A DNA stretch of 64,000 bases from Eledone cirrhosa (GCA_964016885.1 OZ024746.1:29822001-29886000); one strand, 5' to 3'. Positions 41,055 to 58,508 are shown, counted from the first letter of the stretch. Translations and numbers: made by a program. Notes: generated by a model from the sequence alone, not told the origin.

Positions 41055-43445
41055 ATATATATATATAGTAATATTTTAATAAATATATATATATATATAT
41101 ATATATATATATATATATATATATATATATATATATATATATATATATATATATATATATATATATATATGTATATATGTATATATATAAATATATATAT
41201 ATATATAAATATATATATAAATATATATATATATATATATATATATAAATATATATAAATATATATATATATATATATATATATATATATATATATATAT
41301 ATATATATATATATATATATATATATATATATATATATATATATATATATATATATAAACGAGCGTTTAAAGTAAGAAAGCCATAGCAGAGGAAAAGAAT
41401 ATACATCTGCTACTCGACTAATACACATGATATAAATAAATATATACATACATAAATAAATATATAAATAAATACATAAATAAGTAACATAAGATTATAT
41501 TTGCTGTTAAATATTTTATTTGCTTGTATGAATCTTGTTAATGTTTGGTAGATATTTGATAATATATTGCATCTTTAACATTGGTAATCCTTTGAAATCT
41601 AATTAATATTATTTCTTTTAATAGTATCATTTCTACATTGAAATACACAGACACATAATGCTATAAAATCTCTGAATAGTGTCGACACGTATATAAAGGT
41701 GATTCCATACAACCTGTTCGTGATAAAATATAATTTAGAGGAATATGAGCCGAATAATGCCAACAAAATCTTTGTTTATTTGAGTAGCTGAGCAACGGAA
41801 GTTATATAAAATGTTAAGTCGTCTTGATTTAATTGAAGATTAAAGTTCGATTTTGGTTATTTGAATAGTTCAGTAACTGATGTAATATAAGACCTTAAGT
41901 CTATTTGACATAATGACGGATTAATGGTTGATTATTTATCTATTGATTCTGCTCAATATGTTTTTTGTCCTTGAATAATTGCTTTTAATAAATGTTTTTA
42001 TTTGAAAGACATTTTCAATAAAAAATATGGAAAAGAAACTGTCGATAATTAGATCTGATGAAGGAAACTGTTTCCATTGGTCATTCCATTGCTGATGCTA
42101 TCTGCTGCTCATAATTCATGACAGAAGAAAGACGCTGATCGTCACATCGATTGAAAGAAATGATATTTCCTGAATCTTTCTATGTTGATGGTATCATTCG
42201 GTTACAACACCTAGCAGAATGAGGTGGAATCTGAACTCAGAACGCCAAGAGCTGGAGTAGATAACGCTCGTCATCCTGTTCGATTCTCTAACAATTCTGA
42301 CAATCCACCACATTAGAATGGTATTTTATTTATCGACTACGAAACGATTAAAGGAAAAGTCACCGATGGTATTTGAATTTAGAGCACGAAGCTTTTAACG
42401 ACTCTGCCAAACCGCTGCAAAACATTTATAATTTCTCTTTCTACTTCTTTTTGCTAATTTCTAATTTTTTTCTTCTAAAACTACTTCATAAGTATAAATG
42501 CAAATCCCTCCCATGATCCTCTCTCTCTCTCTCTCTGTCTCCCTCTCCTTCTCTCTCTCTCTCTCGCTCTCGCTCTCTCTTATTCTCCTTTTCTTTCTCT
42601 CCAACTCTCTCCCTTTCAACCTATGTACTCTAGGTTGTACTTCATTCATATGAATTCTTTCGTGAGGTATCCACAACACGTTTGTAAAAACAAAAACAAT
42701 AATTAGTAATACTAAGATTTTATGTTCAAGATATCAAAGAGACGTTGACTGAGAGTCTCACCGGTCAGAATTGTGAAATGTGTTAACCCGGAGGACAAAG
42801 AGGAAGATGTGCTGAACGATCCACTCTATATACCGTGTCATTTACAAAATATTAGATGAACATTGTCTCCGGATGTTTATGTGTAAAATTACTAATGTAT
42901 TGCTTCTAGGTTTAATGAAGGAGTTGCACTAAAACAGTCACTCCATATCGCGTAGCTAAATCTTTCTTGTCCCACACTTATAATTTTTCATATTCATATT
43001 TAGCTACTGTCAATGATTTAAAATTTTCAATCAGTGAACTCTTTGTTTCAACAATTAATGTTATCTAATGCCAAATAAAACTAATCAAGTAAACCAAGCA
43101 AATTGCTGCAGAAAATAGGCGAAATTAGAGATTCATAACACAAAACATTAAATTTGCAACTTATAACAAGTATACGATAAAATAATATTATATCAGACTG
43201 TAATGTCCTCCCAATTAAGCTTAATTCTACTTCAACTGAATTAATGATATTACAGTGTCATTATAACAATCCCACAGACATACCTTATCTATCTCTCTCT
43301 CTCTCTCTCTCTCTCTCTCTATATATATATATATATATATATATATATATATATATAACAAAGGAATTGTGGTAAGGAACCAAATGGACCATAACGCACC
43401 AGAGTACTCAATACTTAGGGTAGTAGAGTGGGAAGTAGTAAAAAG

Positions 43446-43547
43446 TATGACCCCGACGGCAGAGCTCAAGCCTTTTCGACGGCTATTTCTGGACTGAATT
43501 AGAATTTTTAGCCTGGTGAATAAATAGCCGAACTTTTCAAGGGGGTA
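43446..43547 (-). ncRNA. Type I hammerhead in the PLE pLTR, U3/A8 core variant
   Basis: Minus: ACCCCC|TTGAAAA|G-TT-CGGCTATTT..AAATAGCCG-T-C|GAAA|AGGC-TTGAGCTCT-GCC|GTC^|GGGGTC. Confidence 0.7.
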
Positions 43548-44277
43548 CTTCCTTATATGGGAAGATTGTAGTTGTCTAGAGGATTGGTTAAAATGTATTG
43601 TAAACACAAATAAGTCTATCATGGCATTTGGTGGGAAGTAGGGGTGGCTGAACTTGCCTGTAGAACAATAGAGGAGTGAGTGGAGCAGTCAAGCGTTGAA
43701 AGTGATATGTATACATCAGATTCTAAGGATAGTGTATGAAGTGGGGGAGGGAGGTTATAGAATAGGTAAATCGAAAGAGAGTAGGAGACAATAAAAGATA
43801 CTAGAAAGAAATTAAAAAATAAAAAATATATAAAATTAGATAGTGAGAAATGAATAAAGAAATCACAATGCTATCTTCCAATTACAGGTTAATAAGTTGA
43901 ATAGAAAAACCACATAGAAATTACAAAACAGATACAAAGTTAAAGGGTTTTTTAACACATCTGCTATAAGTAGTTAGTAAAACGTATTCGGCTAATTCTA
44001 TCTTAAAATAACAGGCGTGGGGGAACTGATGCTACAAGGCCCGATGGGCTGCATCGGGGTAGGCGAAAAAGGAAAGCAGACGAGGAAGAAAATAGGGAGT
44101 GGAAGGAAGTGATAGGATGAGACAGGGGGAAGAAGGAGACAAAGAGGAAAAGAAAAGAGATACATTTACCTATGTAAGTTGGGGTTCCCCTAACTTATTC
44201 TGCAAGTTTTGTTTGGGCGGTATCAGCCCTTGTCTACCCACCCGCGTCGTTATAGGGTTTGAGGGCGAGGTAAGTCC

Positions 44278-45360
44278 TACACAATCTGTGTTTGCATGCG
44301 GTTACCAGTTCATCTTGCTTAGGAGCTGGTCCTTCGAAAACAGCATTGTAATATTTCCTCCGAGCATAAGTTACACGGACGGCGTCTTCCCGTGTAAGAA
44401 TTAGCTCTGGACAGTAAGCGCCAAGTGAGATTGTAGGTTATATTGTTATCTTGGAGGTCCCAGATGTGGCCCGAATGTGTAGTGGCATGTCGCCGAACCG
44501 GGTTTCGGAAAGTGTGTCGGTGTTGGTAGAGCCGGGTCTTGAAGTCACACGCGGTTAATCCTATATAAGCTTTGTTGGCGGTGTCCGTCCTCACGTTGCA
44601 CTGGTAGATCACGTTACGTTCTCGGCATTTGTTGTTGAGGGGGGCACGTGGATGTATCACGGCAGTTACACCTCCTGGTTGGCTCTCCACTGATGTCTAG
44701 GTTATTTCTTCCATAGGGGTTGAGTTTTTTGTTGTTTGAGGAGACGATGTTTTGTGCGAAGTTAGGTGTGGTGCTGTAGGAGAGTTTGGTGGTGTTTTTG
44801 TTGATTATGTTGTGGTAGCGGTGTTGTAGTGGGAAGTGTTTTTCGAGGAGTCTAAGTAGATTTTCCCGATAGGTGTTGCCACCTCGGCATTGTGGGGAGG
44901 ATTGAACCACGTTACGTTGCGTGAGCGGCGGTGTCACCTGCTGGTTCCGCTAAGGGAAGCTGGATAAAAGAATATTTCCTCCCGGAAGCCACTCCGCTTG
45001 AGGGCCTGATTGTATTGAGGCGCGTGTTCGTCGAATATCTGCTCATTAGCGGACAAACGGGATATGCGGAGGGAGATGTTTTTAACCAGGTTATTGGTGA
45101 TGTTTCTAGGATGGTTTGACCGGCGGTGGATCTAATGCAGGTTGTCGGTGGGTTTCCTGTATGGGTAGTACAGATCATTTTCGAGGTTAAGGGTAACGTC
45201 CAGGAAATTGACTCGGGTTAGGGACGTTTACAGGGTGATTTTAAATCCCCTGTCCCGGAAGGAGTTGATTAGTTATTTATGGACCCGGTCTGTACTACTG
45301 GGGTTGTACCCTTTGAGGGTGAGGAGCCCATCATGCCGGTACAATCCACCGTCGAATGCA
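44278..45360 (-). pseudogene. PLE reverse transcriptase C-half plus GIY-YIG endonuclease (stops and frameshifts)
   Basis: [82 protein letters not shown]. Confidence 0.85.
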
Positions 45361-57482: not shown

Positions 57483-58310
57483 TAGGGGCTCCCAAAGGAG
57501 CACTGAATGCAATGTCAACTCTGCATGTCGGTGAGCATGTCCAGCTAACCTCAGTCTCCTCTGTGTCACTTTTGAGCTGACTTTTGGGATGCTCCATACA
57601 GCTCTGAGTGTTTCATCCTCAGTGTATACTGATTAATGTTCAGAGCCATCCTCAACATTCTCGTGTAGCACCCATCCACCATCTGGGTTAGTTTCTTGGT
57701 CAGTGTCCAAGTCTCAGACCCATACAGCAGCACAGACTCCACTACAGCAATGAAGAGGCGGATTTTCAGGTCTCTACGAAGGTCCGAATTCCACACCGAT
57801 CTCAAGCTGTGGCACGCCGCCCAGGCCTTGCTCTTCCTCTCAACCACATTATCTTCCGTATTCCCAATCTTTGCTCCCAAATACAGGAAGCCCTCAACCA
57901 ATTCTAGCGGCTTCCCGCCTACATTAGTGATCCACTCTGGCTTCTCAACATTCTCTACCAGATATTTTGTTTTAGTCTCATTCATTCTCAGCCCCACACT
58001 CATCTACACAGTCTCATCCTCCTGCATCAAATCCTCTGCCTCCTTCACTGTATTTGTCACCAAAACTATGTCGTCGGCAAATTCAGCATCCGATACCTTT
58101 TTCGCCCTAACTCTCCTGCTCTGAGCCGGTGCTACAGTAAAGCCGGTGCTACACTAAACCACACTAGAAGAGGAAGACCAAGGTTAACGTATGTTGATGC
58201 CCTAAGGACTGACACTGGTCTGTTGGAGACGCGGGACATGGCAGCGATGAGGGACAGAGACCGCTGGAGAGAACTCGTCCATGTTCTCGGGAATTTTACC
58301 CGCCTTAGAA
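57483..58310. mobile_element. RTE-type LINE with 5' inversion (minus 57483-58140, plus ~58154-58310) in (TA)n
   Basis: Minus: EFADD..GLRMNETKTKY..VESVLLYGSETWTLT..RLRLAGH..LLWEPL; plus continues HTRRGRPRLTYVD..MRDRDRWRE. Confidence 0.85.
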
Positions 58311-58345
58311 TATATATATATATATATATATATATATATATATAT

Positions 58346-58508
58346 ACGATGGAGGTGTGGTAAGGAACCAGATGGACCATAACGCAGCAGAAAACTCAAT
58401 ACTAAGTGTAGTAGAGTGGGTAATCGGAAAATGTTAACCCCGACGGCAGAGCTCAAGCCGTTTCGACGGCTATTTATGAGCTCTGCCGTCGGGGCTAACA
58501 TTTTACTA
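58346..58508 (-). mobile_element. Hairpin-capped mini-copy of the Naiad-like pLTR
   Basis: Tail on the minus strand; imperfect palindrome 58428-58504. Confidence 0.8.

Follow-up and report, generated by a model that had tools for sequence, protein, structure and literature searches.

Short hairpin repeats in the Eledone cirrhosa genome derive, as dead-end copies, from one end of a Hydra-type Penelope-like element

The window, i.e., the whole stretch of 64,000 nucleotides of Eledone cirrhosa DNA analyzed here, carries one coding copy of a Penelope-like element (PLE) and four short hairpin repeats (minis), all five lying where the original prediction had placed them. Two junctions recur in these copies: J2, which reads ..CCTTCGTT followed by (TA)n and is the end common to the coding copy and the four minis, and J1, which reads ..GGTTCC|TAT, 17 nt after a GUC, and is the end of each inverted arm, in agreement with the predicted arm stop at TTCC|TAT some 17 to 20 nt past the GUC. 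The coding copy occupies 43357-45402 on the minus strand, its 3' end ..CCTTTGTT abutting (TA)n at 43356/43357. It comprises, all on the minus strand, an 81-nt tail (43357..43437; unit 3544-3629, equivalent to 1-86) bounded by J1 at 43437/43438, a hammerhead-like module (43438..43560), a subfamily-specific 3' UTR (43561..44018) without match to the young reference unit, corresponding to the gap between unit 2541 and 3424, and a decayed open reading frame (44019..45372) encoding the RT thumb, a CxCX5C linker, and the C-terminal GIY-YIG. This frame is 83% identical to unit 1183-2541, carries frameshifts and stops, and is 5' truncated at about unit 1183. The copy is capped by a 30-nt inverted arm on the plus strand (45373..45402), a copy of unit ~3514-3543 that ends at J1 (..GTTTTCC|TATATA); 45369-45402 matches 43436-43469 at 91%. 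The module includes stem I (ACCCC/GGGGU plus GGAAG/UUUAC), the UUGAAAA core, helix II, a GAAAA mutated from the GAAAC of other copies, a helix III whose loop reads GAGCUC, and GUC|. Helix II is long, and its loop contains both a TATA-like box and the initiator-like TTCAGTCC.

Mini 1 consists of a J1-ended inverted arm (45921..45974, minus strand), running from unit 3543 back to 3490 at 100% identity, and a J2-ended arm (45975..46110, plus strand), running from unit 3489 via J1 (46029/46030) to J2 at 46110, with CTG|CCAG at the center. Between the coding copy and mini 1, the flank forms a palindrome with 255-nt arms (45401-45910). In mini 2 (49036..49214, plus strand), the J1 arm (~49036-49086, a minus-strand copy) and the J2 arm (~49083-49214) meet in an AATT palindrome, and in mini 3 (52635..52793, plus strand) the J1 arm extends to ~52681 and the J2 arm starts from ~52676. 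Mini 4, of a diverged subfamily, joins a J2-ended arm (58347..58477, minus strand; unit ~3490 to J2, 84%) to a short J1-ended inverted arm (58478..58506, plus strand) that runs from the helix III GAGCTC to ..TTTTAC|TAT. All four share the ..CGTT|(TA)n end. As had been claimed, their centers lie at or near stem II and the 5' core strand is lost: the centers fall in the helix II loop or 3' strand, except that of mini 3, which lies further downstream than the usual zone, in the next local hairpin, AGCCG..CGGCU (unit ~3497-3507). Two further plus-strand copies were missing from the earlier account, namely, an older J2-ended copy without inverted arm (51875..52015; 82%, with weak homology upstream to ~51814) and a 36-nt J2-ended stub (50307..50342; unit ~45-81) flanked by TA repeats on either side.

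By its motifs and domain order, the family is assigned to the Hydra clade of C-terminal EN+ PLEs, a clade described by Craig, Yushenova, Rodriguez, and Arkhipova in 2021, whose supplement includes Hydra-1_Obim (PMC8557442). Section 11 and the supplement of that paper give as its marks a C-terminal GIY-YIG, CxCX5C rather than CX2-5CxxC, DKT, and a (TA)n target. The full-length unit (copy L048, a single open reading frame) encodes RT (YRDDG), followed by FLDV..YRKPN and, close to the C terminus, by VIYQCNV..YIGLT, and the coding copy of the window keeps this order of RT and GIY-YIG; the linker reads CNCPDRSIC in L048 and CNCRDTSTC in the window, both fitting CxCX5C. The L048 frame also carries SDKTGN (DKT in place of DKG), CNLC ahead of the conserved E, and, judged by eye against the CCHH criterion for the GIY-YIG core, a single Cys between GIY and YIG, and the element inserts into (TA)n as the Hydra clade does. 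With the clade as presented in those parts of PMC8557442, the element thus has in common the order from RT to GIY-YIG, CxCX5C, DKT, CxxC before E, the (TA)n target, and a hammerhead-type motif near the 3' end, and a 784-residue frame repeats, by eye, long conserved blocks of the supplementary alignment. It differs from that description by a unit of 3,543 bp instead of <3 kb, by an N-terminal RWR instead of RWK, and by a noncanonical hammerhead (position 3 being U or C and position 8 A, with 31 to 35 nt in the helix II loop). No Pfam family was found for the three open reading frame pieces of the window or the 784-residue frame. The original label of "Naiad-like" has to be given up: the Naiad GIY-YIG is N-terminal and joined to RT by a CxC domain, whereas the nuclease here is C-terminal, with the CxCX5C and DKT of the Hydra clade, and no GIY-YIG occurs within the N-terminal 200 residues of the L048 frame.

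Tandem and full-length units are continuous: the 3' UTR leads via the hammerhead-like fold to J1, and from there the 81-nt tail and J2 lead on to the 5' UTR and the ATG. Thus, the (TA)n-abutting end indeed recurs in all five copies, as predicted, but it is not the end of the repeat unit, ..CGTT continuing into the 5' UTR and ATG. J1 marks the 3' border of the hammerhead-like fold in full-length units, and it is also a regular 3' end of full-length copies devoid of any hairpin (L048, L049, and L051). The 81-nt segment between J1 and J2 is the "tail" of the PLE literature, and the 5' UTR of full-length units begins with it.

The predicted hammerhead ribozyme stands as a fold-compatible motif, but its core is noncanonical, YUGANAA instead of CUGANGA, with A at position 8 in 26 of 27 copies and C3 together with A8 in 8 of 27. 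Compatibility with the fold is supported by the pairing of 89% of cells and by one covarying pair. No Rfam hammerhead was matched in the whole window at the gathering score, nor in 43300-46200, which includes the module, and an intact copy at E<=10; the many microRNA-like Rfam rows are TA-repeat noise. The module showed no unusual folding stability compared to shuffles (z of +0.53 and +1.35), its minimum-energy fold is not a hammerhead, and centroid folds keep only the local hairpin. A U3-A8 core within a PLE pLTR is also found in the Cercyon PLEs of Schistosoma (Cervera and de la Pena 2014, PMC4209133); compared to these, the putative ribozyme here has a 6-bp helix III with a palindromic GAGCUC loop and a long helix II loop with promoter-like motifs. 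A non-LTR retrozyme was rejected, as retrozymes are tandem monomers with a complete hammerhead each, whereas the minis are not arranged in tandem and have lost the 5' core strand (unit 3443-3449).

Genome-wide searches with exact 32-mers retrieved J2+TA ends at 20,271 places and J1+TA ends at 4,795 places, and hairpin junctions (15-nt flanks, center of up to 30 nt) occur at 10,139 places. Reversed-pattern controls gave 0 in all three counts, and the junctions are therefore far beyond chance; the fixed arm ends first seen in the window hold throughout the genome. The arms are 97 to 100% identical among many copies. Many chromosomes carry copies, which rules out the single local duplication that the original prediction had named as a refuting possibility. 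In samples taken in genome order from the first 27 Mb of one chromosome, i.e., young copies with exact 32-mers, 65 of 100 J2 ends had an inverted partner ending at J1 and a single one had a partner ending at J2. Reciprocally, the inverted partner was J2 ended for 26 of 30 J1 ends and J1 ended for none. Among nonredundant minis, the pairing was J1/J2 in 84/93, J1/J1 in 1/93, and J2/J2 in 0/93.

The two arms point to two separate cDNAs. Of 63 oriented minis, 15 had a longer J1 arm and 32 a longer J2 arm, with 16 equal or ambiguous. A J1 arm reaching beyond the J2 arm holds bases that are missing from the latter and that a J2 cDNA folding back on itself cannot supply; two cDNAs are thus needed, as the original prediction had it with priming at the 3' end (J2) and at an internal CCUAU (J1), and this fits in vitro work on another PLE (PMC11167929). 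In a self-priming or snap-back scheme, the J2-primed cDNA would fold back and copy itself and the nuclease or repair would resolve the product at J1; this comes close to a self-priming proposal made for PLE inverted repeats in 2013, and passages of PMC3846280 read the inverted-junction palindromes of rotifer PLEs in this way. The small junction overlap would suit it, and some events could still be J2-cDNA fold-backs, as longer J2 arms are twice as frequent as longer J1 arms. Nevertheless, we consider self-priming a rather improbable explanation of the minis: besides the 15 longer J1 arms, it fits poorly with the filler of >3 nt at 14 of 63 junctions and needs an extra, unexplained cut exactly at J1, which is a regular 3' end of hairpin-free full-length copies, and another PLE extends both strands in vitro (PMC11167929). 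The way in which the two cDNAs had been thought to join, by pairing through stem II, was not supported, as the minis have no 5' strand of helix II and the junctions show an overlap of 0 to 1 nt (37/63) or filler (26/63).

Both arms stop within a zone of 11 to 20 nt, with a sharp limit at unit 3482-3493. Mini arms end 0 to 11 nt upstream of the helix II 3' strand and duplicate the same 46 to 65 nt, and none of the 63 minis has an arm beyond 3482. With BLAST ends at palindromic junctions good to about ±3 nt, the 5' ends of 56 out of 100 J2 copies fell within 3474-3493 (2.8 per nt), compared to one in the 20 nt upstream (0.05 per nt), and this peak includes copies with no inverted partner or with a partner that is not J1 ended. 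Among 119 head-to-head junctions, in which the long copies were partly picked by their nuclease domain, 75 were zone/zone, 15 long/long, and 3 zone/long. The hairpin center thus behaves like a template end, which suggests run-off at the 5' end of the RNA: the zone is also found in arm-less copies and yet is passed when the partner shows a long template. A TATA-like box (3457-3466) starts 29 nt before A3486 in the initiator-like motif, and the minis lack this box. Hammerhead self-cleavage was rejected as the source of the 5' ends, since there is no clear peak at 3521-3528, where 5 of 100 J2 copies end (0.62 per nt, compared to 0.41 per nt in 3494-3520), only L056, L063, L099, and L174 doing so at 3527/3528.

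The common limit might instead reflect an RT stop at a structured part of the RNA, either helix II or the AGCCGUCGAAACGGCU hairpin, an explanation that we regard as unlikely. The limit adjoins helix II, and 11 of 100 J2 copies end within 3494-3520 (0.41 per nt), the site of the local hairpin, which is the sole element retained in centroid folds. However, the stops fall in the loop, after the stem has been copied and not before it, long-template partners pass the zone (long/long versus zone/long, above), the folding energy is no better than that of shuffled sequences, and the limit coincides with the initiator-like motif downstream of the TATA-like box.

Each hairpin was likely built anew at insertion. 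The 63 oriented minis show 48 distinct centers, the commonest occurring 4 times, and many different centers were likewise seen among the 50 hairpin-junction places examined. Subfamily-defining changes recur as mirror images in the two arms, 3523 T>C being mirrored in 34 minis and restricted to one arm in 3. A mirrored variant private to a single mini, sought as proof of one RNA molecule, was found once, and the use of one RNA molecule is thus argued from the template class. We infer that both arms share a template, be it the same RNA or the same particle. A MITE- or SINE-like spread, in which transcripts of a hairpin master would be copied whole, with later divergence of the centers by palindrome instability, could account for the many copies with nearly identical arms and for the few recurring centers, but it appears very unlikely: the centers differ despite these arms, each looks like two truncated ends, unit copying would not mirror the subfamily-defining changes, the minis are devoid of the TATA-like box, and the arms of long coding copies vary (30, 141, 156, and 196 nt). 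The check that the original prediction had called for, independent origin versus a MITE-like subfamily, thus speaks for independence. A MITE or fold-back DNA transposon was rejected as well, as the centers differ, the 81-nt tail is at one end, and the arms are retroelement pieces. Finally, inverted duplication at the DNA level after insertion, with palindromes forming in unstable (TA)n, could call on the large flank palindrome next to mini 1 and on L066/L090, two mirror-image copies 250 bp apart, but has next to no chance of explaining J1-ended and J2-ended arms in 84 of 93 minis or a narrow center zone at 10,139 places.

Altogether, the short hairpin repeats, of which this Eledone cirrhosa genome contains ~10,000, are dead-end copies derived from one end of a Hydra-type PLE. 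We propose that these stubs are dead-on-arrival insertions in (TA)n, each probably arising from two target-primed cDNAs, at J2 and J1. One cut strand would start its cDNA at J2 and the other at J1, 81 nt upstream, both copying the same RNA or RNAs of the same particle. Both cDNAs would terminate by run-off at the 5' end of a short, ~140-nt RNA that would start at A3486, inside the helix II loop, 29 nt after the TATA-like box, and their ends would then be joined end to end with an overlap of 0 to 1 nt or a few filler bases. If J1 were used first, J2 would stay free for the second primer, while a first use of J2 would cover J1 with its cDNA; a J1-first order would explain the J1+J2 pairs, the common J2-only copies, and the rare J1-only copies. 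More tentatively, and as a possibility to which we give less credit, a single RNA might be copied twice in a fixed order, J1 and then J2 displacing the first cDNA, both running off the 5' end, with the promoter in the helix II loop of the ribozyme. If so, this order would explain why PLE tails occur on one side only, transcripts would begin with a disabled half-ribozyme and keep the whole one at their 3' end, and the ~10,000 stubs would be complete natural records of double-stranded target-primed reverse transcription. The model yields concrete predictions for RNA end mapping and in vitro assays.

These insertions bear on the question of how PLEs build tandem and inverted insertion units. In L1 twin priming, attributed to Ostertag and Kazazian (2001), the second target strand is said to prime internally on the RNA, giving a 5' inversion; there, the inverted and direct parts are adjacent and nonoverlapping, whereas here the arms copy the same 46 to 65 nt twice, and an L1-type product was rejected on this ground. 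Arkhipova reportedly described in 2006 a PLE insertion unit with a pLTR, an inverted 5'-truncated copy, and a tail. Passages of PMC3846280 and the legend of Fig. 2 in PMC8557442 present this unit with a pLTR, an adjoining inverted 5'-truncated copy, and a one-end tail of 30 to 40 bp, and a TATA plus Inr pair is noted in rotifer pLTRs (PMC3846280). As far as these passages describe it, our element shares with this unit the head-to-head copies, the one-sided tail, the partial tandems, and the TATA plus Inr-like motifs. It differs by its 81-nt tail, by its commonest product, a 160- to 190-bp hairpin without coding part at ~10^4 places, and by the one-J1/one-J2 rule and the common inner limit, which are quantified here. 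No description of hairpin, fold-back, or twin-priming PLE mini-copies was found among the matches listed by a literature search of PMC Creative Commons papers and bioRxiv.

A precedent is the purified PLE protein of Anolis Poseidon, which cuts and extends both strands and begins RT at two internal positions delimiting the tail (Frangieh et al. 2024, PMC11167929). In vitro, it was not until that study, on one vertebrate element, that both strands were seen to be cut and extended, and extension of both strands and two start sites bounding the tail appear to be common to our element, as far as its insertions tell. Ribozyme cleavage is dispensable for Poseidon, and 5' ends here are not clearly enriched at the GUC. 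In contrast, the Poseidon start sites lie 111 to 118 nt into the open reading frame and have no target homology, whereas J1 and J2 are in the 5' UTR and precede AU/UAU able to pair with (TA)n, and both Poseidon strands use the start sites alike (PMC11167929), whereas the pairs here are almost always one J1 and one J2. The element itself is not of a new kind, and the mechanism for PLE 5' inversions advanced by the original prediction is not new in principle: since both-strand, two-site priming was shown in vitro in 2024, the insertions here are a clear genomic record of a known mechanism. To this, our study adds the strict J1/J2 pairing and evidence of a template common to both arms, from a genome with thousands of young minimal insertion products of a different PLE clade that can be read as the outcomes of single events. 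These stubs support two independent cDNAs and the paired use of the start sites, one each, and suggest that the two cDNAs share a template that would begin at a fixed point of the pLTR.

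The five copies of the original prediction share a ..CGTT|(TA)n end and carry inverted arms stopping at TTCC|TAT, as described there. The coding copy (43357-45402, minus strand) is a decayed, 5'-truncated retroelement copy that meets a TA repeat at 43356/43357 with its 3' end, ..CCTTTGTT; its far end is capped by a 30-nt inverted arm (45373-45402), which duplicates sequence close to that 3' end and itself ends ..GTTTTCC|TATATA. Four hairpin copies of 160-190 bp (minis), at 45921, 49036 and 52635 on the plus strand and at 58347 on the minus strand, each combine the ..CGTT|(TA)n end (junction J2) with an inverted arm ending in GGTTCC|TAT (junction J1), 17 nt past a GUC. 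No arm is present on two more J2-ended copies, one at 51875-52015 and the other a stub of 36 nt at 50307-50342. The TA-rich spacer between the J1 arms of the coding copy and of the first mini (45401-45910) is itself palindromic, its arms (45401-45655 and 45656-45910) being 95% complementary, non-TA stretches included, which indicates that the flanking DNA separating these two insertions, each from a different subfamily, was duplicated in inverted order. Directly upstream of the mini at 58347, one frame at 58150-58300 reads ..RRGRPRLTYVDALRTDTGLLETRDMAAMRDRDRWRELVHV.., which we take to resemble the C terminus of a LINE-type ORF, the mini presumably sitting in the 3' TA repeat of that ORF.

The unit was numbered on one natural 3,543-bp unit of a tandem array, position 1 lying immediately past J1. 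The sequence runs without a break in tandem and full-length copies, starting with the 3' UTR, GGAAU..ACCCC, the core UUGAGAA and helix II, whose 31-nt loop contains TATTTAAATA (from 3457) and TTAGTCC (A at 3486), followed by GUCGAAAC, helix III (6 bp, GAGCUC loop) and GUC|, the predicted hammerhead cut after 3526. Past this cut lie GGGGUCUUACUGGUUCC, ending at J1 (after 3543), and then 81 nt ending CCUUCGUU at J2, beyond which the sequence continues with AUCUAGC.. and the 5' UTR to an ATG at 174. J2, the shared 3' end, is thus internal to the repeating unit, and the PLE (Penelope-like element) "tail" is the 81-nt stretch from J1 to J2. The outer part of stem I (GGAAU/GUUCC) has its 3' edge at J1, and J1 can terminate full-length copies (loci L048, L049, and L051). 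Three short matches to 3030-3097 in the 3' UTR (window 41434-41493, 53465-53503, and 63782-63808; 27-60 nt, 80-96%) lack the rest of the element, and this segment is perhaps common to the element and another repeat.

By its domain order and motifs, the element belongs to the Hydra clade of PLEs. In the window copy, the RT thumb is followed by the linker CNCRDTSTC and then by a C-terminal GIY-YIG nuclease, and in an intact copy (L048) an open frame of 784 residues contains SDKTGN, YRDDG, CNCPDRSIC, VIYQCNV..YIGLT, and CNLC before the conserved E; a Pfam search of the element's protein frames gave no match. A nuclease at the C terminus, CxCX5C, DKT, and insertion into (TA)n mark the Hydra clade as described by Craig et al. 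2021 (PMC8557442), whereas Naiads carry their nuclease at the N terminus, so the name "Naiad-like" proposed originally is wrong. The family is very large: a 125-residue nuclease query returned 53,740 first-look candidates in the genome, with open frames of up to 819 residues among 150 scored, and relatives of ~700 residues on 2.3- to 3-kb contigs abound (of 7,999 scored, 647 had E<=1e-5). The genome also contains a tandem array with a period of ~3,543 bp; L043 (contig 1: 91476500-91486400) comprises at least 5 head-to-tail units of 3,543 bp that are 99.9% alike, with frames of 784-786 residues open in several of them. In the supplement of PMC8557442, the consensus printed just before Hydra-1_Obim has ..TCTCTTCGTTATAT.. 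shortly after its hammerhead, resembling the J2 motif CCTTCGTTAT of the Eledone cirrhosa element; the start-site motif may therefore be conserved across the Hydra clade.

The two-junction architecture extends from the window to the whole genome. Exact patterns occurred at 20,271 places for J2+TA, at 4,795 for J1+TA (young subfamily only), and at 10,139 for the hairpin junction (15-nt flanks, centre of up to 30 nt), all reversed-pattern controls giving 0. For closer study we took the 100 J2 and the 30 J1 places that come first along contig 1 (within its first 27 Mb), samples that rest on exact 32-mers and hence represent mainly young copies. An adjoining inverted partner ending at J1 accompanied 65 of the 100 J2 ends (60 detected by BLAST and 5, whose arms are short or diverged, by pattern), the others having a J2-ended partner (1), other partners (9), or no partner (25). 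Conversely, 26 of the 30 J1 ends had an inverted partner ending at J2 and none had one ending at J1, the remaining four showing a partner running through J2, a rearrangement, an internal deletion, and no partner (1 each). Across all loci, the 93 non-redundant minis comprised 84 J1/J2, 7 J2/other, 1 J1/other, 1 J1/J1, and 0 J2/J2, and long head-to-head pairs obey the same rule (L033, L034, L037, L040, L045, L046, and L050). A one-sided tail in PLE insertions is already published (PMC8557442, Fig. 2 legend; PMC3846280); the new contribution of these counts is the strength of the J1/J2 pairing.

Such hairpins could arise from a single J2-primed cDNA that folds back and copies itself. In 63 minis, the J2 arm was longer in 32 and the two arms were equal or ambiguous in 16, and fold-back may contribute to these events; in the other 15, the J1 arm was the longer, and a self-copy cannot hold bases missing from the J2 arm. 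A second cDNA, independently primed at J1, is therefore needed in at least a quarter of events. The joining of the two cDNAs through stem II pairing, as first proposed, does not fit these minis: they lack the 5' strand of helix II, and junction overlap is almost nil (0 nt in 23, 1 nt in 14, filler of 1-3 nt in 12, and more filler in 14).

The position of the centre, where the arms meet, points to the end of the template. BLAST ends at palindromic junctions being accurate to about 3 nt, 56 of the 100 J2 copies had their 5' end in a zone at 3474-3493 (2.8 per nt), compared with 1 at 3454-3473 (0.05 per nt), 7 further upstream than 3454, 5 at 3529-3546 (0.28 per nt), and 15 inside the tail (0.10 per nt). 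Clear enrichment was missing at the predicted hammerhead cut, with 5 copies at 3521-3528 (0.62 per nt) against 11 in the preceding 27 nt (3494-3520; 0.41 per nt), and starts at this cut are too rare in this sample to count as a peak. Four loci (L056, L063, L099 [2150-2350], and L174) begin at GGGTC or GGGGTC, within 1 nt of the predicted cut, L174 being a tiny hairpin with both arms ending there. The zone also stopped the J1 arms, in 51 of the 60 partners of the J2 sample and in 24 of the 30 of the J1 sample; no arm passed 3482 in 63 minis, A3486 being a frequent end. This A belongs to TTAGTCC (whose counterpart reads TTCAGTCC in the window's old copy and, in most of the older copies, TTTAGTCC) and lies 29 nt downstream of where TATTTAAATA begins, which is the usual spacing between a TATA box and an initiator. 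TATA and Inr motifs in pLTRs (partial tandems), together with a start site within the pLTR itself, are described for other PLEs in PMC3846280 and PMC2377424.

A structure that stops reverse transcription could produce such a common limit, and the limit does lie beside helix II, although the stops fall in its loop, past the stem already copied. Of 119 head-to-head junctions, for which long copies were partly chosen via the nuclease domain, 75 were zone/zone, 14 zone/downstream, 9 downstream/downstream, 15 long/long, 3 zone/long, and 3 downstream/long, while ~25 zone/long junctions would be expected if partners were independent (70% of all arms end in the zone). The arm classes of the two partners are thus strongly linked: where one arm shows a long template, the other also passes the zone. 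This linkage argues for a template end rather than a structural stop, and suggests that both cDNAs come from the same RNA or the same particle. Moreover, a J1-ended partner was missing by BLAST in 13 of the 56 zone-ending copies, some of them joined to other element pieces (L055, L160, and L177), so the limit is independent of the hairpin. In L177, L160, L055, and L110, a 5' end at 3483-3489 is joined to a same-strand piece ending at 196, 901, or 2805, as expected from a jump off the end of one RNA into the inside of another; such jumps may be how pLTRs arise.

Copying of the minis as units is unlikely given the different centres of copies whose arms are 97-100% alike, the 48 distinct centres in 63 oriented minis (the commonest seen 4 times), the mirroring of subfamily-defining changes in both arms rather than in one (3523 T>C, 34 versus 3 minis; 3538 G>T, 13 versus 2; 3533 T>C, 15 versus 1), the missing TATA-like box, and the inverted arms of 30 to 196 nt on long copies. 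Many different centres were also tallied by eye among 50 hairpin-junction places. The arm is probably built at each insertion, which supports an independent origin of the minis. At contig 1, 5.866 Mb, mirror-image copies 250 bp apart with TA repeats between them (L066 and L090) share an unusual inner join, in which 3486 adjoins 3521, suggesting later inverted duplication of an insertion.

We term the motif around the zone hammerhead-like. Rfam returned no hammerhead, at gathering score or E<=10, in the window copies and one intact copy. In 27 diverged copies, U4, G5, A6, A9, G12-A14, A15.1, U16.1, and C17 were kept in 25 to 27, position 8 was A in 26, position 3 was U in 19 and C in 8, and position 7 was free to vary (G 16, C 6, A 3, U 2); a U3-A8 core is a PLE variant described in PMC4209133. 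The proposed fold paired 89% of cells against 30-53% in slid controls, the structure being drawn from the same 27 sequences, with two-sided change at one pair only (UG to GU, 9 cells). The folding energy of the module was no better than that of shuffles, and the proposed fold has a competitor in a local hairpin, AGCCGU/ACGGCU.

Altogether, we propose that the promoter-like motifs, where a copy keeps them, would give short RNAs running from ~3486 through J1 and J2 into flanking (UA)n. The element protein would cut both strands of the TA repeat; J1 would be the start for one cut 3' end and J2 for the other, each site being followed by AU/UAU able to pair with the repeat. Both cDNAs would then run to the RNA 5' end and be joined end to end. 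If one RNA serves both, a start at J1 would leave J2 free and a start at J2 would cover J1, which would fit the J1/J2 pairs, the J2 ends that are lone or have other partners (34/100), and the rarity of J1-only ends (1/30, plus 3 odd cases). Only 1 mirrored variant private to a single mini was found.

Of the original interpretation, independent origin and both-strand priming at two sites find support, while its family name and joining step are incorrect. What is added here is quantitative, namely the strict J1/J2 pairing and the linked template class of the two arms, together with the limit that the arms share at a promoter-like site within a ribozyme-like fold. The element itself falls into a known class, and its insertions have a known architecture. 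The mechanism, too, has an in vitro precedent: in the work of Frangieh et al. 2024 (PMC11167929), a purified PLE protein cut and extended the two DNA strands, with reverse transcription starting at a pair of internal sites that bound the tail. That result agrees with our two-cDNA reading and with the minis whose J1 arm is the longer.
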